Positions 5,001-48,998 of a stretch of 64,000 nucleotides of DNA are shown here, in pieces. This stretch comes from Bilabrum cf. latius. Taxonomy: Eukaryota. Position numbers and translations under genes: made by a program. Position 1 is the first letter of the stretch. Each line of letters opens with the position of its first letter. The stretch lies in the NCBI GenBank assembly GCA_965178125.1, contig OZ237761.1, positions 434,001-498,000 on the forward strand, given 5' to 3'. The notes under the pieces were generated by a model. That model made no database searches, was not told the origin of the DNA, and was given only the letters and a program-made list of their open reading frames with translations.

Positions 5001-8000
5001 GTGACTTGGTCGCAAGTTGGACGTGGTCGGCGTTCTCCGGATCCAGGTCATCTCCAGGCCCGGGACCCACGCCGGCATCCATTCGAGCCTCCCGCTCGAG
5101 GGCCATGGCCCGCTGCCTCTTCCTCCTCTGCTAGATGTCCACCGTTGCACCGACTGGCACGAGCTAGAGGAGGGCTGCTCGAGGCAGCTTGGGCCCGCCC
5201 TTGGCCTATTGCTCCTCTTTGGCGCGCCGCTCTGCGTCTCGCTGCCCCTGGCGCCGCAGCAAGCGTCGAGCTCGCCGTCGCTTTGCGGCCGTGATGGTAT
5301 CGCCAGCGTCTAGATCGTCTAGCCCATCGGTCACACCCGACAGCACCGTGAGCTGCCTCCCCATGCTGCCCCCACCATCCGAGGAGCTGTCGCCGCTCAG
5401 GTCACCGCCATCCACGTCGTTGTCGCTCTCGGATCCGCTCAGGTAGTAGTCGCCCGTGCCTGCGAGCACCATCTTTTCAACGTCTCCTGCCATGCGTCGG
5501 GCACCAGTCCCGGTCGCACCAGTACCTTCCACGTTGCTCTTGTCGCTTTTCTTATTTCGCCGGTGACGGCGCTTCCGACCACGGTCGGCTGCCTCGGGGT
5601 CCCGACCGCCCGCGTCGTCGGTTTTATTGCCAGAGTCAGCTGCACCGCCATCATCCTCGCCGCTCAAATCGTCCCCATCGTCCCAAATCTCCTCCACCTG
5701 CATGGCATCGCTTCCTTCCTCCCCCCCAGCGCCGTCAGGGTGGCGGTCGCGGTGGTACCGGGGTGAAGAAGCTCGCTATACGCCCTCCAGCTCACCCCTC
5801 TCGAGCAGAGCCAGCTCTTCGTCATCTTCATCATCGCTGAGATCCTCGGCATCCTCACGGGCGGCGGGTGCGTCCCACGCCAAGGCCGGTTCGATCTGCC
5901 ACATCCAGTCGCCGTCCCTGACCTCAGGCGCCTTAAGCCGCAGTTCAGCCACCTGTCTAGCGAGGTTGGGCCTGGGGTACTTGCCCTCCCTGGCTGCCGC
6001 CCGGATGTCGTCCAGTGTCATCGCACTCCCCTCGGCGATGTCTAGCAAGTCCGTCGAGGTCTGCTCGGCTAAGGTACCCGCTGCGAAGCGTACGCCCCCT
6101 GTCTTCTTTCCATCTGTCTGGTTGCCCGCGCCGCTAGAAGCACCGCCCTCGGCGGCCCCTATGCCCTTGTCCTCATCGGACGCATGGCCGTCCCTGATTG
6201 CAAGCCTGCTGCCGTTTCCTGTCCGTCTCGTCCCAGCTGCTGCATCCTCGTGCTCCAGCAACTGGCGAGCAGCTTCCTCTTCCGCTTCGCGCCGTTCTCT
6301 GGCAGCAGCCTCCCTCTCCTTCCTGGCCTTCTCTCGCTTGCCCTCCAGCCTTTCCTCCCAGTAAGAATCCTCTTCTTTGCCGAACACCGGCCATACAACC
6401 CGTCCTTCCACCTCCTGTTGCCGCAGACGAGCGGGCCCGCCCTTCACGAGCACCATGAGAGGGTACCGCTTGGGGTCTTGCCAGGCCCTAAGGTGCTCAA
6501 TGGGCAAACCACGGGGCACCATCTGCGAGCCGAAGACGCCGTCCAGATCCACTCCGTAGCACGGGATCATCTCCTCGTCTTCCCCCCACGGCCGCTTCAC
6601 GTCAGCGGTGATGAACGAGTCGGAGATGAGACTCTGCTGGAAGGCCACATCGATTAAGTCCTGGAACATCATGAGCTGTGACTGCATCCAGGCAAACCTG
6701 CGTCGGTCTACCAGCGCCTGCACAAAGTCGTGGAAGCTGTCCTTGCTTGCTACAACTCCGTAGAAATCTCCGTTCACCATGACATCTGCAGCGGCGTCGA
6801 TGGCAACGAGGTCCTCTGGAAGAAGCACCCTTCTCATCGCACCGCGAGCGACGATGTGCTGCCTCCTGCCGTAGAAGAGATAACCCGCTTCCTGCGACCC
6901 ATCTTTGGCCATCTGCCTCTGCCTGTTGGCAGCGTCCTGGACCGCCTTCTCGAGTGCGGCGCGCTCCACTCGCCCGCCCATGCCGAGCGCAATGCTCTCC
7001 CAGACGAGTTTCTCGCTCGCCGGCAAGCCTCGACCGTCCTTACCGCCAAGGCCGAGCCCACGGTCGGCCCAACCTGCCACAGGGGTGAGGTTCCTGGGGT
7101 CAATCTCTAGGCCGACCTGCTCTAGAACCGACTGCACATCGTGCAGCCGCTGCAGCCTTTCCTAGGAATAGTCCCTCATTACCTGCACACCGGCGTCCAG
7201 CAGTCGCTACGGGGGTGATCGCAGCCTGGGGTTGTGGTGCAGCTTGATTTCTCGAAGGGCTGGCATCCGCAGGAGAAGGTCTCCGAGGTCAGGGAGGTCG
7301 TTGCCCTGCAGCCACAGGCTCTCCAGCGCGTTAGACAGCGGGCTGTCCCCGTGGAGCGACCGCGGCAGCCTGCGAATACGGTTATAGGCGATTCGCAGCT
7401 GCTTCAACGAAGACAACAGTCCGAGGGAGTCGGGCAGGCCGCATCCATCGGGGGACTGACCAAGCGCGCATCGATTCGCATCCAGGCGAGCTAGGCTTCC
7501 ACACAGTGCCAGCGACTCGGGCAGTGCCTCAAGTTTCGGGTTGCTGTCCAACGTGAGGCGCTTCAGCGAGACCATCGCACCCATGCCTAGTGGCAGGTTC
7601 TCTAGCTGATTGCCTGAAAGGTCAAGCTGCTGCAAGTCTGGCAGCGCGTGCGGAAACGCGGCAGGCAGCTCTAGTAACCTGTTATGGGAGAGATCCATGA
7701 CCTCTAACTTCTGCAGGCACAATACACCTGGTGGAAATCCGACGATCTGATTCCTGGCGAGGTCGAGCACCTTCATGTGCTCGAGGTCCCGCAGCACCAC
7801 CTGGGGCAGCTGCCTCAGCTTGTTGCCACGGAGCGATAGGGCCTGCAACTTCGTCAGCTGCCGCAGGGCGCCAGGCACCTGCGTCATGCCGTTGAAGCCC
7901 AGCCGCAGCTCCTGCAGGCCCTTGTACTTGAAGATTGCGCCCTTGACGTGCGCTGGGACGGCATCGTATGATTCAAAGTACCGGTTGGCGTTGACGGCCC

Positions 8001-11000
8001 TCACATCGCCTGATCGTGCAGCCTCCACCATCTGAGTCAGCTGAGCGTGCATGGCCCCCTCAGAGGATACCAGCTCACCATCAGTGCCACCCCGCACCAG
8101 CTGCAGCTCAGGTGGCGCACCTCGCTGGTAAATGTGCTGAGCCTGCCTGCATGCCCATCGGATGCCCTCCGGGCCCCTTCTTACCGCATCGTCCGGCGGA
8201 AACTGCAGGGGGTTGCCGTGCAAGGCAATGCTCTTGAGCGCCTTGAGCCGGGCGAAAGAGAGAGGTAGCCGCTCGATCGCATTGTTCCCTATCCGGAGCC
8301 GAATGAGGGAAGAGAGATCGCCCATGCTTGGGGGCAGGTCCTGCAGTCGATTTCCCTCCAAATTAATGGCCTTCAGGCTCCTGCATGACCCAATGGAAGC
8401 TGGTACCGACTGGACATAGTTGTGCTGGAGGCTGAGTTCTTCCAGCGTGGTGCATTCACCCACGGTCTCGGGGATGGAACCCAGGATATTGTGGTCGGCG
8501 AGCACTCGCTTGAGCTTGGGGCACCTAAACAGCGAGGCGGGGAGGTGCGCCAGCCGGTTATTCCTCACGTTGAGCACCTCCAGGTTGACCAGCTGCTCCC
8601 ACCGGTCCGCTGATGGCGGCATGTGCACGGACACCAACCCACGATGCCTGTGCACGAACAGCAGCGCCCTTGCGGGCTGCCTCAGGCCCATGTTCTCTGC
8701 GACGCCGCCCAAAGGAGCAGTCTCTCCTGCTGCAGCAGGCATCAAACCTGTTCCCTCGCCAGGTAGCACCTGGCCGAGCGTATCGTCGAGCGTGGCACCA
8801 CCTGCAGCTGTCCTTGCAGCACTTGCACCCCTCGATGCATCCGTGTCTCTCTGGATATCCCGAGTGCGCAGCCCAAACACCACGGCAGGGTCCTGCTTGA
8901 TCAGCTGCCCACCACCACCCCTTCGCTACCCGAAGCCCGCACCTGTGCTTGCATGCGTCGCATCATCCCCACCGTATTGCACCCCACCGGCAGTGGCAGA
9001 CTGCTCACCACCTTCCTGCCAATGCCCTCGGTAGTACGTTGACCCGTCGTCATCGTACCCACCTTGCTCTGCCAATGCCGCCTGCTGCCCGCCATTGTAG
9101 CCCTGGCCCTACCCAGAGACCTCAGTTCCTGCCACGGACTGGTACTCGCTGTTGTAGGCAAACACCCCAGCACCCGGAGTGGAAGCCCCCATCGGCGTCG
9201 ATGCCCATGCCTGCGTGCCTGCCCCAGCCATGGGCGTCTGCTGCATGGGCCCGCCTCCCGACCAGTAGGACGCCTGGTCCGCGTCACTGTACCCTGTGCC
9301 ACCCTCGCTGGCACCCCACCGTGCCGTCACCTCAAGCTTCGGAGCTCCATCACCACCACCGATGTTGCCACCGCCGGCGGACGGGGACAGAGGCACCAGC
9401 TGCATGGCGCCACTTTGACCGCCATTGCCGCCCCCTGCTGCGTAGTCCGTCTGAGCGTCCCAGCTGGACCCCGCACCGTGCGTTAGATCTGCGCCCGGTG
9501 ACAACATACTCCCACCACCGGTGCCATTCCGTCCAGCACCCGACGCCACCACCAGTTGCCCGCCCGCACTGCCATCCGTCAAATCGCGTGTGCTGCCGCC
9601 AGCGCCGTGCAGAGTAGAAACCGTGCCTCCGGCTTGCCACGTCGTGCGCTGGGAGCGCAACGAGTCCTTCTCGTCAGGGAACACAACCGATTCCGAGTCC
9701 TGTCCATGCACGCTGGGGCCGGACGCGGGCCCTTTGACTGCCCCTGGCATCGAGGTGCTGAGCTTGGTCCCGCCCGCAACTGCTGCTGCTCCCGCCATCA
9801 TGGTGTGCACGGGTGGCAGCTCAGCCCAAGGGTCCAAGCCGTACCCTCCTGCGTCATCACCGGCGACTTCCACCGCGGCGTGAGCAGCATCGCCCGTGGC
9901 CAGCGTAAGATCCCAGCCCGGGCCCAGATCCACGTCAGCCGCGCCCATGTGCCTTAGGCCCGAGTTGAAGGGGTCCATCTCGTCCATTGCGGGCTCTTCC
10001 CGACGCACCATGCTCGGCTGGTGCAGCCCTTGCAGGCCTGTAGGACCGGTCGCATGGACTCCATCGGGGGCACCCCACCCTCCCTTTGGTGACCGCTCCG
10101 CGACTGCTGGTGGTGGAACACCATACACTGCTTCCCAGACCAGCACCCCTTCTTTCTCCGCCTCCTGCTTGCGTCTCTTGAGATCCTCGCTCTCTTCGTC
10201 TTGCCATCCTTCTGGTGCCTCCCACTGGCTCTCGCCCGAGGCCTCGTTGAAGTAGTAATACAGGCCGTTCTCCTCGTCCCAGCCCCGCTGCCAGGCCTGA
10301 TGGTACCTCTGCCACTCTTCTGCAGCAGCATCTGCTTCGTCATGCTCTTGTTCCGCAGCTGATGCAGCGGCTACACGACGAGCCAGAGCATCTGCAGCCT
10401 CCTGCTGCTTCTCCACCATCGCGGCTGCTTCCGCCCGAAGTGAAAGCGAGCCATGCGACGCACGTGCGGCTTGCAGTTCGGCCCCGGAAGCATGCTTGTC
10501 TTCAGGACCTTCTCGCGCACTGGCAGTGTGCACCGACGGGGCGAGTTCCTTCAGGATGCCCTGCCGCTGCAGGGACTCGTGCGCTCCCCTTACTTCATCA
10601 GCCTCATCGTCGAATCCCTCTGGCTTGTGCCGCTACATGGCACCTGTGCGCTTGTGGAAGTAGGCGACCTAGCCCGTCCTTGGGTCCTCCACGATCTTCC
10701 AGTCCATGCGGGTTTTCTGTCGCCGCCGGGCACGGGCTCTGGTAGCTTTGTCACCAGTGGTGCTCGCCTACTTTGGCTCGTCTGTTGTGGAGCCCTGGCT
10801 CTGCCCAGCAACAGCTACTCCCGCGTCTGGGCCTGCATTTGCTGCTGGCGTTGGCTACCCAGCCGCAGATCCTGAGCTCTTCAAGTCAGCCGCAGCCTAG
10901 GTAGCCTCGCTCTCAGGACCCCCACCCACATCGTTCGGAGCTGTGAAATTCGCCCCTGTCCAGTCAAGCCCGCGCTTTGCGTCCGATTCGCTGCTGCTGG

Positions 11001-13455
11001 CTCTATCCGCCGCCGGAGTGGCCGGAGGCAGCGCCAGCCAGCCGCTGACCTCCTCCCCTGCCCGTCGCCGGGGAGGGCTTGGAGGCGCGGGCAGCGGGCC
11101 GTCCGCGTCGCCCTCGGCAGCTGCTCCCGGCTTGGGCGGGGCAGTGTCTGCGCCGAGAAGTGCCAGGCTCAGCAGGTGGTTGCTCTGCAGGTCCAGCACC
11201 TTGAGGCTCTGCAGCCTGCGGAGGTGCCGCGGCAGCTTGATGAGCCTGTTGTCCGCTGCGCGCAGCGTTCGGAGCCTGTCGCACGCACCGAGGTTGCCGA
11301 TCCTGACCACCTAGTTCGCGCTCACGTCAAGGTCGACCAGGTTCCGCGCGTGCATGGGAGTCACCTCCCTCAGCATGTTGGATCGCATGTCCAAAGACGT
11401 CAGGGAGGTCTGCTGCCGCAGTGAGCGGGGCACTGCGCGGAACCGGTTGTTGCCAAGATGCACCCGCCTCGCAAAACGGAGGAGCAGCTGCTCCAGCGCG
11501 TGGTCTGGCCACACGGGAGCCAGAGCAGGGAGTGCCAGCGGCGCGCCCCTGGACTCGTGCTGGGCTCGCATCACGTCGTAGCTGCAAATGCTCGAAAGGC
11601 GGTTGTGTGGAACGACCAGCTCCGTCAGCACACGTCTGCGAAGGCAGGCATCAACGAATCGGGCAAACGTCACCGCAGCCACCGTGGGCGCGGCAACCCC
11701 TCCTGCGGGCGGGAGCGGTCGCGACACCTGCGCCTGCAGTACCCCAGCGCCCGAGCGCGGGACGAGGCCCCCCGCCGATTGCACCGCAGCGTCCACCCGC
11801 GAGCTGCCCCGGATTCCGTGGGAGCCTCGAGTGGCAAGAGCACCGCCCGTGAGTCCAGGAAGCAGCCTCCGCTGTTGCTGCGATACACCCACCACGCCCG
11901 CTCCCGTGTTGACCCCGTAGCCCTCCACGCCTCTGAGTGCAGGCAGGGCGGGCTTGGTCATGGAGCTAACGTCACGTTGGGTCTCCTTGGCAGCTAGTAG
12001 CCGCCCGCTGTACGTGTTGCCGAATGCATCAGGACCACCGAGGCCTGCCCCTACTGATTTCTTTGGCAGGACCTGCGGCTCCGGCTCGCCGCTTCCGCTG
12101 CGCCCGCCACGTCCACTGGCATCGGTCGACTGTCCCCTGCCAGAGCGCGCGAGCCCAGACCTGTCCAGGTACGCCGCAAGCTGCGTGGGGGGAAATAAGG
12201 CCGTAAGACCAACGCGCGGCAGCTGCAGAGACCCGCTCACTAGCGCGCCTCGGGCTGCCATGGTCACTGCGTCATCAGCCGCGTCATCGCTGATGATTGC
12301 GGCCCATCGGTCCCCGCGCGCATTGTACAGATTCGCGTGCGGGGGCAGTGCGGGGGCAGGGGGCGCGGCTGGCACCATCACCCCGCCGATCCCCTGCAAT
12401 TCTTCCTCGTTTTCCTCCTTGTCCTGGTCTGTATTCTCCGAAGTAGGTCCGGCCTGTCCATCAGCGCCGCTATCGGAGGCAGCCCCGGCTGACTAAACGC
12501 TGCTCCTGTGCTTGCTCTCGCCAGCCTCACTGGTCGCATTGCCTCCCAGTGTACCTTTACGTGTGTCCTCGTCCGTTGCAGCCATGGTAGCCCCGTGGGT
12601 ATCGTGCAGCTACGGTGCAACAGTCTCGCCGCCTTGCCCTCGCTGCCCAGCACCCCGGCCTGACCCGCTCTATCTTCGGCTGCCTGGCACATCTCCTGTC
12701 TTGCCCCTTCCAGCATCAAAGTCGGCCGTGTCATCGATGGGGATGGACAGCCCAGCGGCACATCCGGTCGTGCTGCCCAGCTCGCACGGAGCAGCACCTG
12801 CTCGCCCAAGCGATGCTCGCATGGCGTCGCGTGCTCGCTGCTGGTCTCCCACACCCAGCTGCAGCGGCTAGTTGTAGAAGAGACCGCGTCGCTGCGCCAG
12901 CAATGCGGCAGCAGACGCATTCAGGTGCTGGGCTGCCCCTGCGCTCGCTCCCCCCAACCTAACCTCCTTCAGTACCCGGTCGTCGCCAGCAGTGCCTGAC
13001 AGGCCCGCGGAAGTTGCAGACCCGCCGAATCGACGTGGTCGCTCAGCAGAAAGGTCATCAGACCCCGCAATGGCCTCCCCGCGGAGCGCGGCCTGAGCAA
13101 GCGCTGCAGCCTCTGCTGCAGTCGTGCCACCAGACTGGATTGCCGTTGCAAGCGCTCCGGCCTACGACGATCCCATGTACGCACCGCCGGTGATTCTAGC
13201 ATCGGGCCGCCCTAGATATCCTTCTTTGGGGGGATTTATGACTGGTTGTGCTGTGACATATCCACTTCTTGCCTCTTTTCGTTCTCCTGAGGCGGCTTTC
13301 TCTTGCAAGTACTGTCTAGCAGCCTTATGTGACCCAAGCCTTTTGACGAGGTTGGCATAACTATCCCGCGCTTGGGAAGCTTCCTACAAATTCAAAGCAC
13401 CAGGTGATTCTATTCGGTACCGATCGCGAGGCCTAGCGGCCATGGTTTCTGCCAT
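2014..13455 (-). CDS. Giant intronless LRR + WW-domain protein (~3813 aa; 24 in-frame TAG)
   Basis: Minus-strand ORFs 2014.., 2500.., 2776.., 4504.., 4771.., 5206.., 5776.., 7207.., 9109.., 10897.., 11311.. and 12670.. are all in one frame, broken only by TAG. No TAA/TGA from ATG 13455 (or 13443) to TGA 2014-2016. LRR blocks ~7210-8600 and ~11160-11600, WW-like motifs ~10213-10293 and ~10621-10701, charged coiled-coil C-terminus. Confidence 0.8.
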
Positions 13456-13567
13456 GAAAAATTCTCGAGTTGCCGGATACAATTGCACGCAACTATGCAT
13501 TTAAAAATCAGAACTGCGACAAAGTGCAATCGCAACCACGCAGACCTTCTGTACGAACCCAATCGTT

Positions 13568-15412
13568 ATGTCGACCCACACATTTGTGGCAACAGTAAGT
13601 CTCCTAGCAGCAATAGGCTTGGTTGCACCAGCAGGCTCCTCGCTCAGTGGTCCAGAGGCACAAACTGAATGCGGCCAAGTTTTGGGCGTTCGCAACTCCA
13701 CCCTGTTGGTTGATGCATATTTAGGAATCAAGTACGGCGCAAGTCCAACAGGAGCAAGGCGCTTTGCAGATGCCGTCCCGCTGCGTGATGCTGGGGAGTG
13801 TTGGGCCCCCCAAGTTTGGAATGCCACCTCTTTTCGAGACTATTGCGTCCAGTCTGGGCAGTTTCAGGAGGGCGGGAGCGAGGACTGCCTCTTCTTGAAT
13901 GTGTGGATGCCCATGAATGTACAAAATGCTCCAGTGATGGTGTATAGCTACGGTGGGGATCTCACTGACGGGCGGACCAACACGTATGATATGGGCATTC
14001 TTGCCAGCGAGACCGGCGCGGTGGTTGTATCCATGAATTACAGAGTAAACATATTCGGCTTCCTTGCTGCTGGTGCTCTGTCACGCACCAGCGCCAAGAA
14101 GGGCGGCCGCCCGTCCTCTGGCAACTACGGCTTCACGGACCAGATTCAGGCGCTCCGGTGGGTGCAGCGCAACATCCGGTCCTTTGGGGGCGATCCGTCC
14201 CGGGTCATGTTCTTTGGATAGAGCAGCGGAGGCACCTCCGCGTTCGCTCTGCTGGGCAGCCCGCAGGCAACGGGCCTCTTTCGAGCGGCGCTGAGCCTGA
14301 GTGGGAGCGCCAACTTGACCGCCGGGCTACCCGAAGCGGAGGAGTCCCATGCTGCCATAGTCGAGGCACTCGGGTGCGACAGCGGCAGCAATGGCGACGA
14401 AGAGGTCGTGGCGTGCCTCCGGAAAGCTTCCCCGGAGTCTATCGTGGCAGCCGTGCCCAAGGCCTGGGACACCTCCAAGGCGCTGTGGTCTTGGCCGCCC
14501 GCTTCTGCCGCCGCATCCGGGGCCATGGACTACAAGCCCATTGCGATCGTTGATGGGCACGTGGTCAAATACCCGCTTCTCGAGGCCCTGAATCCGCAGG
14601 TGAGGGCTCGGCTTCACCCGGGAGTCGCGGTGGTGATTCAGAGCATGGGGCAGGAGGCAGATGCCCAGCCGGGGACCGTGTTCGATGGCGTGTCCAGGGC
14701 CGAGTTCGAGCAACAGGCCAGGAAGGAGTTCGGACCATGGGGCGACAAGGCTGCTCCCATGATCTTGGAAGCGTACAACGCCTCACTGTAGGCGTAGGAC
14801 GGAGGGCCGCAGATGGCGTTTGCCGAGATCTTGGGGGGATACGGCATGCAGTGCGCCAACAATGCTCTCGGTATGGCTGGTATTGGCGCTGCTACAAGAG
14901 CACAGCTTAGCAGCCGGAGCGGTGTTGTTTCTGCAGCAGATCTAGTCGGCAGCAGCGAAAGCAGGGCGGGGGCTGCGCAGGCGGGCCCTCTGTACGTGGT
15001 GGAGGTGCAGGCCAGGCCCAGCCACCCGATCTGGGGGTTCGATCCGTCTTACCAGCCGCGTTACGCCTTCCATTCTTTCGATATCGTGGCCGGTTTGGGT
15101 CACTGGGACCTGTGGAGCAAGCAGCACGGCAAGCCTGCGTTTGTGCCGAACGTGGAAGACGAGGCATTCGGCCGGGCCATGCGGACCATGTTTGGTGCTT
15201 TGGCCGAGGAGGGCTCGCTGGAGGGACTCGATGGATTTAAACCGTTCGATAGTGAGTGTTCTCAGCGATTCGGTGGTGCTGGCAAATGCAATGGCACTGT
15301 GGTTGTGATCGGGCAGGGGGGCAAAGCCGCGCCTCTGGCGAGCGCTCACGCCAAGCAGTGCGACGCGTGGGCCGCCCTGGGATTTGGACAAGGCTACTGG
15401 TGGTGCAATTGA
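13568..15412 (+). CDS. Secreted type-B carboxylesterase (COesterase family; TAG at 14219, 14789, 14795)
   Basis: Signal-peptide-like N-terminus, SEDCLFLNVW, SMNYRVNIFGFL, GNYGFTDQIQALRWVQRNIRSFGGDP, nucleophile elbow FG*SSGG and YAFHSFD. Three ORF fragments share a frame; ends TGA. Confidence 0.9.
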
Positions 15413-15585
15413 GCTGTTTGGCAGTCTGGGGCAAGCATGCAAAATAGCTGCGTGATTCCAATCCGGAGTTGATATGGTCGAGTGACGTCGCGACGTTGGC
15501 TCCAGAACAACCGGATTCGGACTACGAAAGCAGCCAGGCCGCCGCTTGGTTTTACAAGTACTTTGCAAATTTTATCCAGAGAAGT

Positions 15586-17502
15586 ATGCAGGACGGTAAA
15601 GAGTCCGCAAAGCAACGTTTGCTGCACGAATACGACGGGAGTGACCAGGCCGCAGTTGCTCCAAAACTGGCTGATCAGAAGAGTGATAAGGCCAGTGTTA
15701 CAGCAGAAGCAAGTCCAGATTGCTGCATGTGCTGCTCCCCGTCCCTTGCCGGGTGGTTCCTGGGAGCTGATCCGCAGGAAAGTGACTAGGCACTCGTGGC
15801 ATTAGGCCAGTGGTTTGACCTATGGTGGCCGATTTCATTGAACACGGTCCTTCGGATGGGCTTCCTTGTCATTGATTTGTCGTTCCTGGGACATTTGGGC
15901 ACGAAAGAGTTGGCGGGGGCAGCGGTTGGCAACAGCTTCATCTTCTTGACTGCAGCGTCTCTGTGGCGGTCTGCCGGTGGTGCGACCGGCGTCCTGGCTT
16001 CGCAAAGCGTAGGAGCAGGCAACAAGCGACTCTCTGCTATATGGTTACAAACCGGCATATATGTGGGTTTCATGTTGTGCATTCCTGTCGCGCTCCTGTG
16101 GATCTTCAGCGAGCCAGTTCTCGTCGGCCTTGGGTACAAGGAGAGCGAAGCCGTTCTGGCGGCTCGATTCTGCCGCCTCTTTGCCATCGGACTGCCGCCC
16201 ACGGTCGTGTTCTACGCGGTGACAGCGTGGCTCCAATCCCTCAGCATCGTGCGCCTGTCGCTGATCGTCAGCGCCGTGATGGTGGGCCTCAACGTCGCCC
16301 TCAACATTTTGCTCATCCACGGCTTTAGGTTCTTTGACCCGTCCAACGAGTCCCTCTGGCCGGGGCTGGGCTTCGACGGCAGCCCAATCGCCACTGCGCT
16401 CGGGCGCTGGCTCTCCCTTGGTGTCATGTTCTTGCTGATGGCGCTGTGGGACGGGGACCACCACAAGGCCTGGAAGGAGTCGGGCATTCAGATCAGGGAG
16501 GCGCTGGACCCGTCCAAGCTGTGGGAATGGGGCGCAAAGCAGTTCCTCCCCATGGTGGGGGCTGGCCTCGTGTACGAGGTGTAGGTGCAGCTGCTGGCAT
16601 ACCTTGCAGCGAGGCTAGCACCCTCCGCGCTCTCGGCGCACACGAGCTTCCAGGACCTCTTCTACCTACTTACATCGGCGGTGTACGCGGGTTCCTCCGC
16701 CACCAGCACAAAGACGGGCCACTACCTGGGGGCAGGGCAGCCCGAATGGGCGAAACGGATCGCGTACTTCTCCATCAAATTCGCCGCGGCCGCTGCCTTG
16801 CCCGTGAGCGCCGTGCTTCTGGGGCTTCGGTGGAGAGTGGGGTATTTGTTCTCCACGGACGGGGATGTGCTGCCGTGGTTCGGCCAGATCGCGCTGATCG
16901 TGGGGTGCGGCTGGCCCGTGGTGTCTGCCAACTACACGCTGATGGGCATCATCGGGGGGCAGGGCAGAGCCACCATCCGGTCGTACGTCGGGCTCGCCGC
17001 GGGCTGGGGAGTGGTGGTCCCTTGTGCCCTGGTGGCCGAACTGGTGCTGCATTGGGAGGTGTACGGCCTGTGGGGATCCACAGCGGCGGGCTGGCTGGTG
17101 TCTGCAGTGCTGCTGACCGCGGCCTTTCTTTGGAGCGACTGGGAGGATCTGGCTCGGTAGGCCAAGGAACGTTCCTTAGGGAACAAAAATGCAGGCAGCG
17201 GGAAGGAAGCACCCCAAGTCGACGATGAACGAGGGGATGGGCACGGGAGTGGGCATCGGATGGGAGTGGCCTAGCGTGCCGACTGCGAGGCGGCCGGGAC
17301 CGTATCGGGGAGTGTTGGCGGTATGTACACGGTATCTGGAGGGGAAGGGATGGACAGCGGCGAGAATGGCGGGGCAAGAGCTGTGGGGAAGCACCAGGGG
17401 TGGTCTACCGGTGGGCGAGCGGGAGATAGCGAGCACCAGCGGTGGCCCGCTGACACGGGAGGCTCGCTGAACGATGCCGGGGGACAGTCACATGAAGTGT
17501 AA
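15586..17502 (+). CDS. MATE family efflux transporter (TAG at 15787, 16582, 17158, 17272)
   Basis: IDLSFLGHLGTKELAGAA, LASQSVGAGN, GLGFDGSPIAT, second repeat half starting after the TAG at 16582, C-terminal WSDWEDLAR. Many TM segments; ends TAA 17500-17502. Confidence 0.88.
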
Positions 17503-22445: not shown

Positions 22446-23346
22446 TTACTTGGCCATCATCATGTCCACGAACTCCTCGTAGTTGATCTGGCCATCGCCA
22501 TCCACATCAGCCTCGCGGATCATCTCATCGACCTCCTCGTCAGTGAGCTTCTCACCGAGGTTGGTCATGATGTGGCGCAGCTCGGCGGCCGAGATGAACC
22601 CGTTGCCGTCCTTGTCGAACACCTTGAAGGCCTCCTTGATCTCCTCGGCGGAATCGGTGTCCTTCATCTTGCGGGCCATCATGGTCAGGAACTCGGGGAA
22701 GTCAATGGTTCCGTTGCCGTCGGCGTCGACCTCGTTGATCATGTCCATCAGCTCGGCCTCCGTGGGGTTCTGGCCCAGGGAGCGCATCACGGTGCCCAGC
22801 TCCTTGGTGGTGATGGTCCCATCACTGCGGACAAACAAAAAGAAACGAGACGCGCGGAATCAGGCGGTACATGTTGGATCCACAGACGGTGTAGGGCATG
22901 GCACCAACGGCTATTCGGACCGGTTCCTCACCCGTCCTTGTCGAACAGGGAGAAAGCCTCTGCGAAAGTTGGATTGAAGATGGATTTTGTTGGTTGCATT
23001 GTGAGACCGGCATTTGCCCTCATTGGAAGAGAAAGGAGGAGGCGTTGCCAACTTTAGGTGGCCGCTGGGTATCTCACCCTTGAACTCGGCGATCTGCTCC
23101 TCGGTCAACTGATCTGCGCGACATATTTAAGTTAGTTATATATATACGAAGGTCAGACTGCTCACGGTCGCACGCGACCGATACATCGAGCATGACAAGG
23201 TCCAAAATGTACGCGGTTGACGTCCGCGTGGAGAGTCATTGAAAGTCTGGTCATTTTGAGACTGTGCGCGGCATACACCACCCAAAATCGTCTGTTTGAT
23301 TTATTTGCCCCGCTATTCATCGGCTCAAATCATCCTCACCAGCCAT
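22446..23346 (-). CDS. CaM: Calmodulin (exons 23346-23340, 23113-23078, 22959-22932, 22824-22446)
   Basis: Splicing three GTGAG...CGCAG introns gives [56 protein letters not shown]...[10 protein letters not shown], followed by TAA. Confidence 0.98.
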
Positions 23347-25449: not shown

Positions 25450-25885
25450 CCGTGCTCCGCAGCCGGTCTGCTTCTTCGTGGAGCACGCACTGAGGGGTAG
25501 AGTGGACGCACTCCCTGCACACACAGTCGCGGCGGCCATGATTTATCTCTATTACACAGTGACGAATCATGTCTACGTTCAAGCACGGTCCCTAACACAG
25601 TGCTGTCACCGGCTGGTCTGGACTGGCCTATGCATCACGAACGGCGCCGACGCAGCAGCCATGATGCGACCAAGTCTCACCAGTGATAGTGTGGCGACCA
25701 TGACTTAGATGCATACGTCCGCCGCCCAGTTGATTTATAGGCAGACTTATTTCTACTTGATACTGTTTTTGGAGAGGCTATCCATCGGTCCAGGTGCGCC
25801 GGCAGCGGCGCCGCGCAACGCCTGCCCGGCTCCGCATATCCGGTAACTCACCTCGACCCACTTGTGATTGGTCTCTCAGCGGTCG

Positions 25886-28800
25886 ATGTCGGCTGCAGCA
25901 GGCCACGATAAGTTCCCAGGAGCATCGCCCATAGCATTGTAGGGTCAACGTGGTGGCGGTGGTGGGAATTATGCCGATGCAGGAGGCTATGAAAGCAAAT
26001 CGCAGGGCATCGATGGATTTGGGCCGGAAACCACATCACGGCACGGCCAAGTGTCAAGCTTGGGATCGCGGGGAGGCTCTAGGATGCCTTCACAGGCACC
26101 AGATCGCCGCGGCTCTGTGGAAACCAGGCACAGGTTTGGAGTTGGATTTGCTGGGCACACGCTAATGAACCCGCATCCTGAGGCTGCAGCGATGCGAAGT
26201 GTTCGCTCGCCTGGGGGTCCTCGCCGCGGCAAATAGTCCCGTCCTCCTTGGCAACAAGACTTTAGAGATCCATCTCGCCTCAACGAACGCCAGTTTGGGT
26301 ACTTCAAGGAGCTTTTCGACAAGCCGAGCAGGTCGACCGATCGCAGGGTGTTTTCATCACCCAAAGCCGAGGTCGCAGGGACCAGAGGAAGGGCTCCAGG
26401 TGGAGCTGACCCTTACGATACAACTGCTCCAGGTGCTATGCCTGCCCTGGGCGCTACTGGACCGGAACGAATGTCTGTCGTGCCGCCGGTCGGTGCCCGA
26501 GCTCGTTCTCCTCGCGCGATCTAGAGGTACCTCGACGAAGTGGAGCGAGCCAAAGAGCTCGAAAAAGGTTGGAACGGCCGCGCTCACGTGACAGTTTCCA
26601 AGGACAACGGCCGGATCAGCCCTGTGTTTCGCGAGACTTTCGACCAGCCGCGAGATTTTGACGACGCCACGCCAGGCATCCGCCCCCGCCGCGTGGACGG
26701 GTACGTCCGCTCGCCCACGGGCGAGTACACGCCTACTGCGTTCGCGGAGCGCACGGCATCGCGCGGGGCCGAAGGAAACGCGGCGGGCTTCCCACCCGCG
26801 GGGGGCAGACAGTCTCCGCCAGCACTTGCGGGTGCGGGTGCTCGACACGACGGCCGCGGGAGGGGTGCAGCAGCCCGCCGGGGCGGACCGCGCGGCGCCC
26901 GCGGAGCGGTTCCGTAGCACTCTCCCATCCGCGGAGCGCCGAGTGGCAGCCGCAGCCGCAGCCGCAGGAGCAGGGGCAGAGGCGTACCCAGGGGGGGCAA
27001 GAGTAGGGGGCGGGCTCGTGGCGGCTCCCCTGCCGCCAGGGCGGCGCAGCGCCGGCTTTTACGATCGGAGCAGCGTCGCAGGGAACAACAGAGGGAGACT
27101 GCGGAGCAGCAGCGGCAGTGGCTCGAGCGATGGGATTCCCCCGCCTACCGCGCTCGCGAGGCAGAGTACCTCCGTCGCAGGGAACAAGGCTGGGACCCTC
27201 GACACTACGTCGTGGCAGCCAGGGGCAACGAGGAGGTGCACCACTCGCAGAAGGCTCTCTTCCGCCGCCCGTTTGAGGTGCAGCCCGATGGAACGGCCAG
27301 GAGGATGCCGACGCCTCCCGAAATCTCGCCGCTGGTGATGGTGCCTGACGCAGGCTTCGCTCCCAGACCCCCCTCGCGCCCAAGGTCGACCCGGTCTGCC
27401 AGGCATGGGCGCAGGGCCCAACAGGTCGGTGATGCTGGGGCTGGGGACGATGCTGAGCCTATTCCAAAGGTAGATGAGCAGGAGGAGGCTGCTGCCAAGA
27501 AGGCCGCCGAGGAGGAGGCCGCTGCCAAGAAGGCTGCCGAGGAGGAGGCCGCACACAAGAAGGCTGCTGAGGAGGAGGCTGCTGCCAAGAAGGCCGCCGA
27601 GGAGGAGGCTGCTGCGAAGAAGGCTGCCGAGGAGGAGGCTGCTGCCAAGAAGGCCGCCGAGGAGGAGGCTGCTGCGAAGAAGGCCGCTGAGGAGGAGGCC
27701 GCACACAAGAAGGCTGCTGAGGAGGAGGCTGCTGCCAAGAAGGCCGCCGAGGAGGAGGCTGCTGCCAAGAAGGCTGCCGAGGAGGAGGCTGCTGCCAAGA
27801 AGGCCGCCGAGGAGGAGGCTGCTGCCAAGAAGGCCGCCGAGGAGGAGGCTGCTGCCAAGAAGGCTGCTGAGGAGGAGGCCGCACGCAAGAAGGCTGCCGA
27901 GGAGGAGGCTGCTGCCAAGAAGGCTGCCGAGGAGGAGGCTGCTGCCAAGAAGGCTGCCGAGGAGGAGGCTGCTGCCAAGAAGGCCGCTGAGGAGGAGGCT
28001 GCTGCGAAGAAGGCTGCTGAGGAGGAGGCTGCTGCCAAGAAGGCTGCTGAGGAGGAGGCCGCCCGTTGGCCAAGCAAAGGCCCCATTGTGCGCCTGGAGT
28101 CGCTTGGATTGCCAGGACAGTACTTGCGCTCTACACCTCAGGGCACAATGGATTGCAAGGGTGATTCCGCTGAGAGAGGGGGTCTATGGCGCGTGCACTA
28201 CCTAGGAAAGGGCGTGGTGGGTCTGCAATCGCTGGATCTCGGCGAAAGGGTCAACGAAGGTGGCAGCGAGAAACCGGCTGGTGCAGCTGGTGCTGCTGCC
28301 GGTGCCCCTGGCAACTTCTTCATTGGCTCAGAAGAAGACCGTGATATTCTTCCACCTGCGACCACGACTCGCGACAACGTGGGTGCGCACTGGCAAGTAT
28401 ACTGGTGCGATGGGGACATGGGCGGGCCTCAGAGGGCCACAGACGGTAACGCGCTGGACATGGGCGGCGTGTACATGTTCATGAGCGAGGAGGGCGACAA
28501 GAATCTGTGCGCTGGAAGGGACGGTGGTGTTGGTGCCAATGGAGGGATTGGGAAATTCTCGCGCTTCGTGTCTCACGTGCAGAAGGAGAAGGACGCGATG
28601 GAAGCCGAGCCGATGAAGCTGGAGGAGTAGAAAAAAGAGCCCCCGAGGCCCAAGCGCGGCAAGCTGCACATCCGCCTGCACCACGCCAAGGGCCTGCCTG
28701 ACTCGGACACCATCGGCTCCTCGGACCCGTACGTCAAGTTCAACGTGGACGAGGACGGCTGCCCGTGGGTGACCTCCGAGAAGCGGGACAACACGCAGGA

Positions 28801-31393
28801 CCCCGAGTGGGACCAGGGCCAGCCCGCGCCGGAGTACGTGCTGCCCGTGAAGGACGTGACGAGTGCGCGGATGCGCGCCCAGGTGTACGACCACGACGGC
28901 TACACCGGGGACGACCAGCTGTGCGGGGCGGATCGCGAGCTGGGGTTCCTGTACGGCGAGGCGGCGGGTGAGTATGTGCCTGTGCAGCTGGATCTGTCCC
29001 ACGGGGGCAAGGCGAGCGGGACGCTGACTGTGGCGCTCCGGTTCGAGGCGGAGGGCGAGAGCGATGGAGCGGAGGAGGGGGCGGCGTCAGGTGCCGGTGC
29101 GGATGACAGCAAGGCAACTGCCGCTGCTGCCGCCGATGAGGCGGAGGCCGAGCCAAAGGAGAAGCAGCAGACCAAGGAGCCGCAAGAGCCCCCGAGGCCC
29201 AGGCGCGGCAAGCTGCACATCCGCCTGCACCACGCCAAGGGCCTGCCCGACTCGGACACCATCGGCTCCTCGGACCCGTACGTCAAGTTCAACGTGGACG
29301 AGGACGGCTGCCCGTGGGTGACCTCCGAGAAGCGGGACAACACGCAGGACCCCGAGTGGGACCAGGGCCAGCCCGCGCCGGAGTACGTGCTGCCCGTGAA
29401 GGACGTGACGAGTGCGCGGATGCGCGCCCAGGTGTACGACCACGACGGCTACACCGGGGACGACCAGCTGTGCGGGGCGGATCGCGAGCTGGGGTTCCTG
29501 TACGGCGAGGCGGCGGGTGAGTATGTGCCTGTGCAGCTGGATCTGTCCCACGGGGGCAAGGCGAGCGGGACGCTGACTGTGGCGCTCCGGTTCGAGGCGG
29601 AGGGCGAGAGCGATGGAGCGGAGGAGGGGGCGGCGTCAGGTGCCGGTGCGGATGACAGCAAGGCAACTGCCGCTGCTGCCGCCGATGAGGCGGAGGCCGA
29701 GCCAAAGGAGAAGCAGCAGACCAAGGAGCCGCAAGAGCCCCCGAGGCCCAGGCGCGGCAAGCTGCACATCCGCTTGCACCACGCCAAGGGCCTGCCCGAC
29801 TCGGACACCATCGGCTCCTCGGACCCGTACGTCAAGTTCAACGTGGACGAGGACGGCTGCCCGTGGGTGACCTCCGAGAAGCGGGACAACACGCAGGACC
29901 CCGAGTGGGACCAGGGCCAGCCCGCGCCGGAGTACGTGCTGCCCGTGAAGGACGTGACGAGTGCGCGGATGCGCGCCCAGGTGTACGACCACGACGGCTA
30001 CACCGGGGACGACCAGCTGTGCGGGGCGGATCGCGAGCTGGGGTTCCTGTACGGCGAGGCGGCGGGTGAGTATGTGCCTGTGCAGCTGGATCTGTCCCAC
30101 GGGGGCAAGGCGAGCGGGACGCTGACTGTGGCGCTCCGGTTCGAGGCGGAGGGCGAGAGCGATGGAGCGGAGGGGGGGGCGGCGTCAGGTGCCGGTGCGG
30201 ATGACAGCAAGGCAACTGCCGCTGCTGCCGCCGATGAGGCGGAGGCCGAGCCAAAGGAGAAGCAGCAGACCAAGGAGCCGCAAGAGCCCCCGAGGCCCAG
30301 GCGCGGCAAGCTGCACATCCGCTTGCACCACGCCAAGGGCCTGCCCGACTCGGACACCATCGGCTCCTCGGACCCGTACGTCAAGTTCAACGTGGACGAG
30401 GACGGCTGCCCGTGGGTGACCTCCGAGAAGCGGGACAACACGCAGGACCCCGAGTGGGACCAGGGCCAGCCCGCGCCGGAGTACGTGCTGCCCGTGAAGG
30501 ACGTGACGAGTGCGCGGATGCGCGCCCAGGTGTACGACCACGACGGCTACACCGGGGACGACCAGCTGTGCGGGGCGGATCGCGAGCTGGGGTTCCTGTA
30601 CGGCGAGGCGGCGGGTGAGTATGTGCCTGTGCAGCTGGATCTGTCCCACGGGGGCAAGGCGAGCGGGACGCTGACTGTGGCGCTTCGGTTCGAGGCGGAG
30701 GGCGAGAGCGATGGAGCGGAGGGGGGAGCGGCGCCAGGTGCCGGTGCTGGGAGCCCGGCCCCAGCACCAGCACCAGCACCAGCACCAGCACCAGCACCAG
30801 CACCAGCACCAGCACCAGCACCAGCACCAGCACCAGCACCAGCACCAGCACCAGCACCAGCACCAGCACCAGCACCAGCACCAGCACCAGCACCAGCACC
30901 AGCACCAGCACCAGCACCAGCACCAGCACCAGCACCAGCACCAGCGCCAGCTGCTGCGCCTGCACCTGCACCGGCACCTGCACCTGCATCTACGAGTGGC
31001 AAGCTGCACGTCCGCTTGCACAACGCCAAGGGCCTGCCCAGGGGAGACATGTTCGGCTCCGGGGACCCGTACGTGAAGTTCAAGCTCGATGAGGAAGGCA
31101 GCACTGAGATCCAGTCGGAGAGGCGGGACGGCACCACGGACCCCGAGTGGGACCAGGGCCAGCCTGCGCCGGAGTACGTGCTGCCCGTGAAGGACGTGAC
31201 GAGTGCGAAGCTGCTAGCGACCGTGTTCGATTACGACGGCATGTCTGGGGACGACGAGCTTTGTAAGGGCGAGCAGTTGCTGGCTCTCTACAGGAAGGGC
31301 GGGAGCGACTTCAATGTCGCTGCCATGCAGCTCTCGAATAGCTCGGGGAAGGCGGGCATGCTTACTATTGGTATTAGATTTGAGCCCAGCTGA
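25886..31393 (+). CDS. Large multi-C2-domain protein (~1835 aa): basic N-terminus, (KKAAEEEAAA)19 helix, beta-trefoil-like domain, 5 C2 domains, (PA)n linker
   Basis: ORFs 26051.., 26540.., 27212.. and 28745.. are in one frame joined by TAGs (25940, 26234, 26522, 26915, 28628). C2 signature GKLHIRLHHAKGLPDSDTIGSSDPYVKF...VYDHDGYTGDDQL; ends TGA. Start codon less certain. Confidence 0.8.
27481..28062 (+). repeat. Coding 30-nt tandem repeat, ~19 units (KKAAEEEAAA)
   Basis: Unit ggaggaggctgctgccaagaaggc(c/t)gc(c/t)ga, with synonymous variation and three H/R variant units. Confidence 0.97.
28637..30748 (+). repeat. Four near-identical 549-nt tandem repeats, each encoding a C2 domain plus linker (last linker truncated)
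   Basis: Units start at 28637, 29186, 29735 and 30284 and differ by only a handful of SNPs. Confidence 0.97.
30761..30940 (+). repeat. (CCAGCA)30 coding microsatellite, Pro-Ala linker
   Basis: Perfect hexamer array in frame between C2 domains 4 and 5. Confidence 0.97.
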
Positions 31394-35348: not shown

Positions 35349-37211
35349 TCACTGTCTCCCCTCCACGGCACTACCAGACCCGCGGTCCTGCGCCCCACTC
35401 CCAGTACTGCCAGCAGCACCAGATCCAGATCGAGCCCACCACGCGTCATACCCGAGTCCCTCACCTTTCCCTCTCGCGCTGGCGCCAGTGCCTCCTCCAC
35501 CCCCGACGCTCGTGTCCTCGTCACAAACAGGGGCACAGACCGTGGCCCCGTGAGCCACCGCCTGGAAGCAGCCCTCGGGCAAGCCCTCCAGCCGCAGCTT
35601 GCTCGCCAGCCGCATCGGGGGCTCGTCCACGGGTTCGCTGGTCAGAGGGAACGTTCCCCAATGGTGCCCGACGGCCTTTTTGCATCGGGTGTCCTTCATC
35701 ATATCCACCGCATCCTCTGGACTGGCATGGACCGTCGCCATAAACCACCTGGGGTGGTAAGCCCCTATGGGGAGTGAGCCGATGTCAAAGGGGCCGTGCA
35801 GGTCCCCGATTTGCTTGAAGGCAGGGCAGGGCACGTCCCCTTGTTCCCTGAGGTGCTGCTCCTCCGCCACTGCGGCTGCGGTAGGCTTGTCCTCATTCGC
35901 CACCCCGCTGCCTCCCGCTGCCGCCTGCCCTTGCTTGCCGGTAGCAGAAGAAGAAGCGCTCTCTTCCACCGACATTAGTTTTTTCTTCTGCTTAGGCGAT
36001 GACGATGCCGCACCCACTTCCTCCTTATAAACCTACAGAGCCTCCGCCTCCACTGGCAAGAGACCGTAGAAATTCTCCCCGGGGCGAGGAGCCTGGTAGC
36101 CGGTGTCTCCCGAGAAATAGTACCTCTTCCCCTGCCCCCGAATGACAAACCCGCCCCACAGCGACATGTCTCGGTCAAACAACGTCCTAGCGGTATTGTG
36201 CTAGGCTGGCACGAGGTGCACCATCGGCACCTCGCCCTCTGTCTCGCAGGCCCGAGCACTGGCTGCCGTAGACCCCACAACGCCCTCCCGCGCCCAAGCT
36301 TCCAGCTCCGTGTCTGAGCCCGGCACCAGCCCGTCCACCTCGGTGCCGGGCCGCAGGGCGCTCGCAAGCGGCTGCAGCAGACGGACCCCCGACTAGCGCA
36401 CTCGCTTGGCGAAGGCAGTCGGACCTGCCGATGGGCTGAATCCCGGCCTGGCCTTCTGGATCCTAAGCGCGGCCTCCTCGTCCTCCTCGCACGCCTCCAC
36501 CCACCGTGCTCGCCTCTCGTCAGTGGTCGCAAGGAACCGCTCCGACCTGTCGGTGGCGGGGTTGTCGTCCAGCAGCCTTCTCTGGTCTGCCGCCGCGCAC
36601 TCCCACCAGCTGAGCGATCTAATGTTGTGCTTTGGCACGTTGAAGAACCTGTGCAGCTGCTCGCCGCACCCAAGGGGCGCGAACCAGCGCGTCCGGTCGA
36701 ATCTCCTGCGAGTCGGCGCGCCCCGAGCGTCCGAGCCGATCACCTCTGACTGGCGCTTACGGTCCGTTTCTTCCTTCATCATCAGTCTAAATATCGAATT
36801 CTCGTCCATATGGTCGTAATGCGAATGCGACAGCACCACAGCGTCGATCGGCGGCAGGTCCTCGATCTCGCAAGCTAGCGGGGTGTATCGAGCGATGCCA
36901 AACATCTGAGTCGGTGAGCATCGATAGGATAGGGCTGGATCTGTCAATATGTTCCACCCCTCTATTTGCACGAGAAAGCATGCGTGGCCGAGCCAAGTCA
37001 CCTGAAGCGGAGAGCTTGGCGCCTCAATCGCATCTCTGTCAATGGCAGTGCTCGGCGCTGGTCTAATCTTCGCCTTCCTCAAGTCATCCCCATTCTCCCT
37101 GAGCAGCCTAACCAAGTCTTGATTCCTATGCCTATGAAAGGAGTGCCATTCTGGTGGGTTAGCGAACCGCCCGTCTGGCAATCGCACGGGACGTGTCAAG
37201 GTCGTTGACAT
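35349..37211 (-). CDS. NAPEPLD: NAPE-PLD-like metallo-beta-lactamase-fold hydrolase (TAG at 36393, 36201, 36033; start may extend to 37277/37292)
   Basis: VTWLGHACFL, ILTDP, LSHSHYDHMD, PA*H...RTLFDRDMSLWGGFV, YFSGDTGY, LPIGAYHPRWFM, HWGTFPLTSEP; ends TGA. Confidence 0.9.
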
Positions 37212-37496
37212 ATTCCTTACAATCTGGCCTCTTTGCTACCGTGCGTGCAACCTTGTCACGCGAACTATGTATTTCATGCTGTGAGATGGCATTAAACAGT
37301 GAATCGAATGATAGTCGCCGCGAAATCGTGCGCACTGCTGAGCGGGGAATTTTGTGCTGTTTGCGGAACCAGCAGCCTGAGCTCGCGGCGCCGCCACCGC
37401 GGCATTATTCTGATGGAAAACCTCTTGCAACGATCAAATCCTGTAGCGCAACGCGGCCGAACGAGCGAAGCGTGGCTCCACTTCACCTCCCAAGAA

Positions 37497-47200: not shown

Positions 47201-48819
47201 GACTGCAGCTTTCCAGCCGGCTTGTTCCGGTTTGCCTTGTTCCCTGCCTTGCCCAGGATGGCGGCCATCCCTGCAGCGTGGGCGATGGAGTGGATGGTAC
47301 CTGCCTCTGGCAGCTCCATCCCCTAGGTTGTCAGGTCAAGCAGCTCGCTTTGTGGACCCGAGGTCAGGAGCTGGCTCGCGGCCTGGACGGACTCTGGCAC
47401 GTGTGTTGCTGTGGCACCTGCCGTTGCGAGCGCGAGCTTGAGGTGCATGCCAGCCTTCTTGTGATCGATGCTCTGCCTCCGCTGCTGGGAGCCTCGCCGG
47501 TTCCGCGTCATCGACGAGGGTGATGAGGTGCTGTCCTGAGACCGTCTTCGCCTCGATAAGCTGCTGCCGCGGCCAAGCGGTGCAGAAGCAGGAGCTGGAC
47601 CGACCTACTGAATGCCTGACGAAGCCCAGGTGGCCGTGGGGAATCCATCCGCGTCATTGGTCGCACTGCTACCAGATGCCAGTGGGGCACCCGGTGAGTC
47701 ACGTGAGTCACGTGAGTCACGTGAGTCACCGCCGCTTAGCCTGCTCAGCCGTCTCTGCCTATTTCCAAACGAGGAAGGCCTTCTCATGTGGCCCTTACCA
47801 GCAGTCTGGGCATCGGTGGCGGCGCTATCTTCGCCGCGCTGCGGAGAGTTCCTTGGGTGCCCCTCCCCCTTCTCCTACTTCCCCTTATCATGGGCCTGGG
47901 CCTTTGCTGCCAGATGCTGGCCTGAGGGTGGTGATTTAAGTGTCCTCGCCACGATCGGTGCTGCCCTTTCGCCTGGTCTACCGGAAGGTGCAGATGGTCT
48001 AGGCTTATGGGGCGGCACCGGGAGCAATCGCTGCGGTGAAGCTGCATCCGAGCCTCCAAGAAGACAACTGCTGCCCTGTTCGGAGGAACTGCCGGCGGGC
48101 GATGGCGGTGCTTGTGCCGCTGATGCATGACCCCTGGGTGCTGACGTGGGCCGACTAACAATGGTTGGCGGGATCCCAAGAGACTGATCGAAGAATGCAT
48201 CCCCGATCTCGAGCGTCCCCGGGTTCATCTTTGCCAGGTCGTCCCTGTCTTTCGTCAGCTCGACCGCCACTTGAACCAGTACCATACCGCTCAGCAAGAC
48301 GTAAAACTCGTTACCAATCTCGCCCTGCTCGATGAGAACGTCTCCTTTCGGGATTGCCGCAAGCGTGGCTCTTCGAAGCAGTCCAAGTCGAATATCAAGG
48401 GGGAAGTCCTCCAGCTTCGTGGATCCTTCACGACAGATCGCAAGCTCCATTACCTTCAGATCCTCTTCTTTCCGAGCCGCTGGCGACTAGAGCAGGATTC
48501 TGCGCCAATCTGCCAGATCTGCGTCTGGCACTGGCCGTATGTTCGGCCTGAATCTCCTCCGATCGAACCGTATAGCATTTCGAAGCCCTCGTCGACCGGC
48601 ACGCCGCGTCGTCCCCCCGTGCTATAAACTTGGCGTTATATTACTGCTAGATTCATTCTGGTCACCTACAGTGTTTGTGGCTGCCGCTGGGCCGCCGGCA
48701 TACTGAACGCGCTCGTTTGCATCGGCAACTGCCCGTCTGAGCTCATCAAGACCGAGTGCAACCTCGACTTTGCCACCCTACACCTGTGGTGGTGGATCTG
48801 GCCTTCTCAAAGTTGCCAT
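41278..48819 (-). CDS. Large cyclic-nucleotide-binding-domain protein (~2513 aa; many in-frame TAG)
   Basis: Twelve listed minus-strand ORF fragments share one frame, broken only by TAG, from ATG 48819 to TGA 41278. CNBD motifs: LIEQGEIGNEFYVLLSG, GFGEGALLSDDSLRKSSIIASEDC, LCEQGDEAKCVVFVLKG. Confidence 0.78.
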
Positions 48820-48998
48820 TGACTGCTAATGATTTTGAAAAAGGAAGTGCTTGTTGCTGACAGAATTTTCGGCTGTGTCCGTTGCGGCGCCGCAATATAT
48901 TGGTTCCGCTAACTTGCCAGATCGCAAAGTTTGGTCGCTGATAAAAAATACCGCACTTCGTGCGCAATTTATCAATCATGAATAGTAGGCTGCACGAT

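Follow-up and report, generated by a model that had tools for sequence, protein, structure and literature searches.

A probable UAG=glutamine nuclear code in a stramenopile that groups with the bicosoecids

UAG alone is known to encode glutamine (Gln) in Iotanema spirale, Protocruzia tuzeti, Hartmannula sinica and Trochilia petrani (PMC11687900), and stramenopiles do not figure in the searchable portions of that paper. The same portions describe the suppressor tRNA as undetected in H. sinica and T. petrani (PMC11687900). A tRNA reading UAG as Gln has been predicted to arise from tRNA-Gln(CUG) (PMC5304391), and ciliate suppressors most resemble the tRNAs of their own amino acid (PMC10553269). 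No nuclear code change in a stramenopile is reported in the accessible portions of PMC11412368, PMC12152300, PMC13768787 and PMC11008856, nor was one found in the literature searched, which lay outside subscription journals. We consider TAG=Gln in the lineage described here to be probably unreported so far; the first-pass annotation of this DNA had proposed an undescribed code change, and this stands as far as the searchable literature reaches.

We analyzed a window of 64,000 nucleotides, the whole stretch of DNA under study (positions 434,001-498,000 of contig OZ237761.1, here C27), from a 48.6-Mb assembly of 111 contigs. The contig is 923 kb long and has a TTAGGG telomere at its start. Pfam found ordinary domains in 14 of the 16 window frames scanned. 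The genes and frames considered here are listed by window position.

2014-13500, minus strand: LRR/WW protein, a single 3828-codon frame with 24 in-frame TAG, 143 CAG and 28 CAA codons, ending in TGA
13505-15412, plus strand: carboxylesterase with 3 TAG, ending in TGA
15256-17502, plus strand: MATE transporter frame with 5 TAG, ending in TAA
22446-23346, minus strand: calmodulin, 4 exons, 149 aa, no in-frame TAG, ending in TAA
23866-25449, plus strand: DHHC palmitoyltransferase frame with 6 TAG, ending in TGA
25868-31393, plus strand: C2-domain repeat protein, 1841 codons with 5 TAG, ending in TGA
35349-37433, minus strand: metallo-beta-lactamase-fold protein frame with 4 TAG, ending in TGA
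41278-48975, minus strand: cNMP-binding protein, a 2565-codon frame with 19 TAG
58306-59769, minus strand: peptidase M14 segment (Pfam E 4.4e-11, match from 58309)

Under the standard code the longest frame in the window is 920 codons. With TAG as sense it becomes 3828 codons, the second-longest being 2565, so gene prediction with the standard code would break up genes here. As controls, reading through TAA left the longest frame at 920 codons, and reading through TGA gave 1003. One TAG of the carboxylesterase directly precedes the catalytic serine, at the Glu position of cholinesterases. The C2-domain protein has five C2 domains, four of them near-identical, as well as two further repeats, one of lysine/alanine/glutamate and a long one of Pro-Ala. 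The M14 segment had been annotated as a CCP deglutamylase; Pfam confirms an M14 carboxypeptidase, which we take to be of the CCP subfamily.

The calmodulin gene runs from an ATG at 23346 to a TAA at 22446 through exons at 23346-23340, 23113-23078, 22959-22932 and 22824-22446. Its coding sequence of 450 nt (149 codons plus the stop) contains all three motifs quoted in the first-pass annotation, with RHIMTN, a possible stramenopile marker, among them, but because it has no in-frame TAG it is uninformative about the code. An A/T-rich stretch with a branch-point-like CTAAC lies just upstream of its start (window 23365, minus strand), and an identical stretch recurs at the 3' end of its first intron (window 23135, minus strand). 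The genes had been called intron-poor, which holds for the long ones, mostly single-exon, but not for calmodulin and eRF1, each of which has three introns.

We sought to establish which amino acid TAG encodes from conserved proteins across the genome. The 19 dynein segments contain 270 TAG codons. When the paralogs were aligned with each other, 22 of 32 TAG codons in columns at least 70% conserved fell at Gln columns, compared with 214 of 304 CAA/CAG codons, and the TAG residue profile over 201 well-filled columns had a cosine of 0.996 with that of Gln. The log-likelihood for TAG was +82.5 for Gln, followed by −87.2 for Glu. Against 120 outside dynein homologs, the 45 TAG codons in columns at least 90% conserved faced Gln in 30 cases, Glu in 7, Arg in 2, Lys in 2 and other residues in 4, and none faced Tyr or Trp. 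The fraction at Gln columns does not differ from that of CAR codons (375/556; Fisher p=1.0). In the single dynein used for tree building, 7 of 22 TAG codons lay in columns conserved to this degree, 6 of them Gln columns.

Other genes point the same way. Of 30 Ras-family loci fetched, 21 show the switch-II Gln site, and 8 of these have TAG there. Stops inside 65 Ras Pfam matches comprised 48 TAG, 1 TAA and 2 TGA, and those inside 28 dynein matches 20 TAG and no TAA or TGA. The eRF1 gene itself has two TAG codons. At one, position 44, Gln is found in 65 of the representatives covering the site; at the other, position 69, it is found in 43 of 133. The two alignable TAG sites in Prp8 look non-Gln against the human sequence and were left unscored. 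TAG accounts for 1-25% of the Gln codons of a gene, and its share climbs as GC3 drops, as a minor synonymous codon would show. Two other meanings were rejected: Tyr, raised by the body of the tRNA described below, on the absence of Tyr columns and a log-likelihood of −329, the lowest of the 20; and Glu as main meaning (p=2e-29). We conclude that nuclear TAG almost certainly specifies Gln, as judged from conservation. The dynein columns and the Ras switch-II site bear out the first-pass annotation on this point.

Stop codon use was read from 32 genes whose conserved C-termini fix their ends: 7 dyneins, Prp8, eRF1, two HSP90s, calmodulin and 20 Ras-family loci, the last being those of the 30 that end in a prenylation motif (the 10 with no clear motif were left out). 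In this sample of genes the terminator was TGA in 25, TAA in 7 and TAG in none. TAG was not enriched near the ends of 19 frames (2 of the last 570 codons, i.e., 30 per frame, vs 67 of 17723 elsewhere). As shown by conservation, UAA and UGA are the stops and UAG is a third, minor Gln codon.

A candidate decoder was found. One nuclear tRNA gene, single-copy, has a CUA anticodon (C23:907607-907679, 69.8 bits); the ARAGORN label ‘Pyl’ merely reflects this anticodon and was discarded. Over the acceptor and anticodon stems it shares 20 of 24 positions with tRNA-Tyr(GUA), 12 with tRNA-Gln(CUG), which was located among the Rfam matches and not by two pattern searches for tRNA genes, both of which came back empty (0 of 10 and 0 of 13 matches), and 6 with tRNA-Gln(UUG); across 203 pairs of tRNAs that carry different amino acids, no more than 16 positions are shared. 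Overall identity is likewise higher with tRNA-Tyr (68.5%) than with the two tRNA-Gln (62.7% and 60.8%), and its variable loop has 5 nt, as in Tyr, where Gln has 4. Its D-stem (8/8) and discriminator G73, in contrast, are those of tRNA-Gln(UUG). Eukaryotic tRNA-Tyr determinants are C1-G72, A73 and G34, and the accessible part of the same source gives no eukaryotic Gln determinants (PMC9976931). The tRNA retains C1-G72 but has G73 and C34 in place of A73 and G34, and so lacks the full Tyr identity set. Derivation from tRNA-Gln is not what the body indicates, tRNA-Gln(CUG) not being its closest relative. The simplest reading is that the gene represents a Tyr-derived amber suppressor that has switched to Gln. 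No Tyr-derived Gln suppressor was found in the literature searched.

Several features of the other tRNAs are recorded here in their own right. In the acceptor and anticodon stems, the two ordinary kinds of tRNA-Gln agree at only 9 of 24 positions; an A4-A69 mismatch and U73 are found in tRNA-Gln(CUG), and G73 in tRNA-Gln(UUG). This divergence suggests a lenient glutaminyl-tRNA synthetase (GlnRS). The Lys, Val, Asn and Arg elongator tRNAs have A, not T, at T-loop position 54.

The code could be as described and yet be read by something else: a tRNA-Gln(CUA) that escaped detection, is edited or contains an intron, or the near-cognate tRNA-Gln(CUG). Room for this is left by the coverage of tRNA scoring (63 of 780 Rfam candidates) and by the pattern search, which intron-containing genes escape, and the C1:G72 pair kept by the known tRNA is a eukaryotic Tyr determinant (PMC9976931). 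However, the pattern search for a second CUA tRNA gave 49 matches, and of the 40 fetched, once the known gene, a mitochondrial tRNA-Arg and seven repeat copies were set aside, none folds as a tRNA at default settings. The known gene has moreover lost two of the Tyr determinants and shares its D-stem and G73 with tRNA-Gln(UUG), and none of the 45 TAG codons in conserved dynein columns faces Tyr. We therefore consider a different decoder unlikely and retain the Tyr-like tRNA(CUA) as the candidate.

UAG might instead be ambiguous, meaning mainly Gln but sometimes Glu or Tyr, or stop near transcript ends. TAG is indeed enriched at Glu columns of dynein (7/37 vs 26/401 for CAR, p=0.014), the tRNA body is Tyr-like, and the GTS, E55, NIKS, S70 and YxCxxxF elements of eRF1 are intact. 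Against this stand the termini, with no TAG among 32 and no rise toward frame ends, and the exclusion of Glu as main meaning. The excess at Glu columns, like the carboxylesterase TAG at a Glu position, may reflect one-step changes of GAG to TAG at sites that tolerate Gln. Ambiguous decoding thus appears improbable, and a single Gln meaning is preferred. In a standard-code genome TAG would have to be eliminated ahead of translation, through either U-to-C editing or tiny introns. We regard this as barely credible, since the conserved columns that hold TAG are ungapped and show no insertion, and since TAG behaves as a minor synonymous codon and has a cognate tRNA gene; A-to-I editing does not fit, as there are no Trp columns.

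The first-pass annotation had placed the host among the stramenopiles, with a bicosoecid as one option. For a dynein on contig C33 the best named match was Cafeteria roenbergensis/burkhardae (1992 bits, 69% identity; a full-length NCBI protein of 4210 aa), followed by Cantina marsupialis (1743 bits), Ochromonas (1665), Hondaea (1600) and then oomycetes. Dynein trees were built with FastTree on 46 rows and with IQ-TREE on 24 of those over 1600 columns. In both, the query is sister to Cafeteria plus two further proteins (IQ-TREE support 100/100), together with Cantina they form a clade (Bikosia, 100/99), and this lies within stramenopiles (100/100). Constraining the query to the alveolate Vitrella was rejected (p-AU 0.0004). 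The Prp8 FastTree tree, built from 55 of the 120 matches listed plus one cluster member and omitting most plant rows, puts the query, on a long branch (0.4), among 23 rows that include oomycetes, Tribonema and Mallomonas (SH 99); Cafeteria is absent among the 120 Prp8 matches listed. EukProt rows labelled GECG01, which may be Halocafeteria, group with the query in both trees; the prefix was not found in PMC4987115 or PMC5447177. A fragment labelled Symbiodinium microadriaticum (P0374) falls into one 90% cluster with the Cafeteria dynein, and contamination of that record is the probable cause. An ESM Atlas search with HSP90 returned no useful taxa.

The mitochondrial genome (C111) is 38,401 bp long with 24.4% GC, has its genes on one strand, and encodes only 10 tRNAs, among which there is no tRNA-Thr. 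It uses UGA=Trp (code 4), has the order atp8-atp1-atp6 and carries an N-terminal-only nad11. Three very long ribosomal-protein frames of 1063, 808 and 419 aa are presumably rps4, rps3 and rps10, and a nad9-like frame continues into a hydrophobic nad2-like part. Of the 120 cox1 matches listed, just one is named (Saprolegnia), which does not suffice for placement. Two metagenome cox1 proteins, P0001 and P0002, are 94% and 89% identical to that of this organism and represent close relatives. Matching mitochondrial traits are described for Cafeteria and Cafileria in the accessible text of PMC6723347, but a second cluster common to those two, nad5-rps13-rpl2-rps19, is not kept in order here. The mitochondrial traits are compatible with Bicosoecida, without being unique to them.

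Taken together, the dynein tree, the Prp8 tree and the mitochondrial traits agree that the host is, in all probability, a bicosoecid stramenopile, as the first-pass annotation had suggested; more finely, a single dynein gene would place it on a branch sister to the Cafeteria clade. The phylogenetic check puts the dynein within Bikosia and not in a known UAG=Gln lineage. Cafeteria burkhardae (formerly roenbergensis) is the nearest named relative and shares mitochondrial UGA=Trp, atp8-atp1-atp6 and a compact GC-rich genome with the present organism, but a dynein identity of 66-69% marks a different taxon. Halocafeteria seosinensis (38.8 Mb and 46.8% GC in the accessible part of preprint 10.64898/2026.06.25.734631) differs from the present genome in both size and GC. 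Symbiomonas and Anoeca count among the neighbours of Cafeteria.

Within contig C12 (1.33 Mb) is a tandem array of rDNA whose 18S, 1700 nt long, is divergent. A single different 18S, 83% identical to this one and apparently dinoflagellate-like, lies at C95:6099-7900 on a 17.9-kb contig and probably belongs to a co-sequenced organism. This second 18S, and the fact that the trees use genes from outside the window, might suggest a ciliate or another lineage known for UAG=Gln as the source of the window, or else a mixed assembly. Such an origin is extremely unlikely given one Prp8, one eRF1 (plus a weaker two-exon match of the same Pfam family), three HSP90-family genes, one GlnRS (plus one related synthetase) and 19 dynein heavy chains, counts that fit one flagellate; given TAG-bearing frames on the rDNA, tRNA and eRF1 contigs as well; and given the length and telomere of C27 and the trees that put the genes in Bikosia.

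The code of relatives was examined in Cafeteria and in metagenomes. The accessible text of the Cafeteria genome paper mentions a non-standard code for the mitochondrion only (PMC6972860). A dynein survey of metagenomes kept 80 of 583 loci, of which 30 were placed on the tree. L131, the sole bikosian among the 30, is free of stops over 3220 aligned codons, 143 of them CAR, and none of the 30 is closer than Cafeteria. Thirteen TAG-bearing loci sit within one clade outside stramenopiles, which we take to be ciliates from its TAA/TAG pattern, in a tree with no named ciliate. Within this clade L203, L192 and L206 have 10, 3 and 2 in-frame TAG and no TAA, possibly further UAG-only codes. On the stramenopile side, L175 has 2 TAG, only in alignment gaps, and its dynein uses 4 CAG vs 118 CAA codons at 45% GC. 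The metagenome dyneins L172, L188 and L147 have all three stop codons in frame.

From one named genus and one metagenome locus, the relatives thus appear to use the standard code. Because these checkable relatives are standard, and because the known lineages with UAG alone as Gln are ciliates and a fornicate, TAG=Gln very probably arose independently here; the standard-code relatives and the tree position support the independent origin raised in the first-pass annotation. On the thinly sampled tree the change would map to the lineage of the present organism, later than its divergence from Cafeteria and separate from the changes in ciliates and Iotanema. With no placed locus closer than Cafeteria, the survey dates the switch no more finely than this.

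How might the change have come about? UAG may first have become rare as a stop in a GC-rich genome that prefers UGA. In eRF1, Val replaces Ser60 (TASNIKS), a state shared by 2 of 130 other representatives and by none of 73 close ones, and this Val60 may weaken recognition of UAG. The tRNA(CUA) would read UAG but not UAA and would be charged by GlnRS, and UAG could then have expanded into CAG and GAG sites of weakly biased genes. The GlnRS gene (C33, ~558-561 kb) encodes Gly at the position of E. coli Arg402, which is Arg in the human enzyme too. This Arg contacts anticodon base 36, and plants also have Gly. The replacement is only a lead, and if the tRNA is a converted Tyr suppressor it may represent a second enabling change. 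We find likely the overall explanation of a bicosoecid host, UAG=Gln, an origin after the Cafeteria split and a mechanism involving tRNA(CUA) and eRF1. More tentatively, and as a possible rather than probable account, this may be the first non-standard nuclear code in a stramenopile, in which a tRNA-Tyr(GUA) mutated to CUA acted as suppressor and turned to Gln by gaining a D-arm of Gln type and G73, after an earlier stage of Tyr readthrough, with eRF1 Ser60Val as an enabling change.

UAG and UAA are rarely uncoupled, and the present case adds a third eukaryotic lineage to those with UAG alone as Gln. The near-chromosome-level genome and a cultured relative with the standard code, Cafeteria, make the tRNA, eRF1 and GlnRS changes directly comparable. 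The genome also supplies a candidate for the cognate tRNA gene missing for Iotanema, Hartmannula and Trochilia, one that misfits the predicted origin from tRNA-Gln(CUG).

Among described systems, I. spirale (Fornicata) likewise has UAG=Gln, UAA and UGA as stops and an altered stop-recognition motif in eRF1, as far as the accessible text goes (PMC5304391). It belongs to another supergroup, however; its eRF1 change is T32G in GTS, whereas GTS is intact and Ser60 is Val here, and its tRNA was only predicted, from tRNA-Gln(CUG), whereas here the gene is in hand and has a Tyr-like body (PMC5304391, same text). The ciliates H. sinica, T. petrani and P. tuzeti also use UAG alone for Gln, but are alveolates (PMC11687900, searchable portions). 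According to the same portions, rhizarian exLh and the TARA phyllopharyngean ciliates (UAG=Leu) and Scotinosphaera (UAG=Ser) resemble the present organism in having UAG uncoupled from UAA and, where found, a CUA tRNA, but assign UAG to another amino acid. Tetrahymena, hexamitins and ulvophytes (UAR=Gln) also read UAG as Gln with tRNA-Gln(CUA), but there UAA is Gln as well, whereas here it ends 7 of 32 genes. This is a known kind of code in a new lineage, and the Tyr-derived tRNA is its most novel and least proven part.
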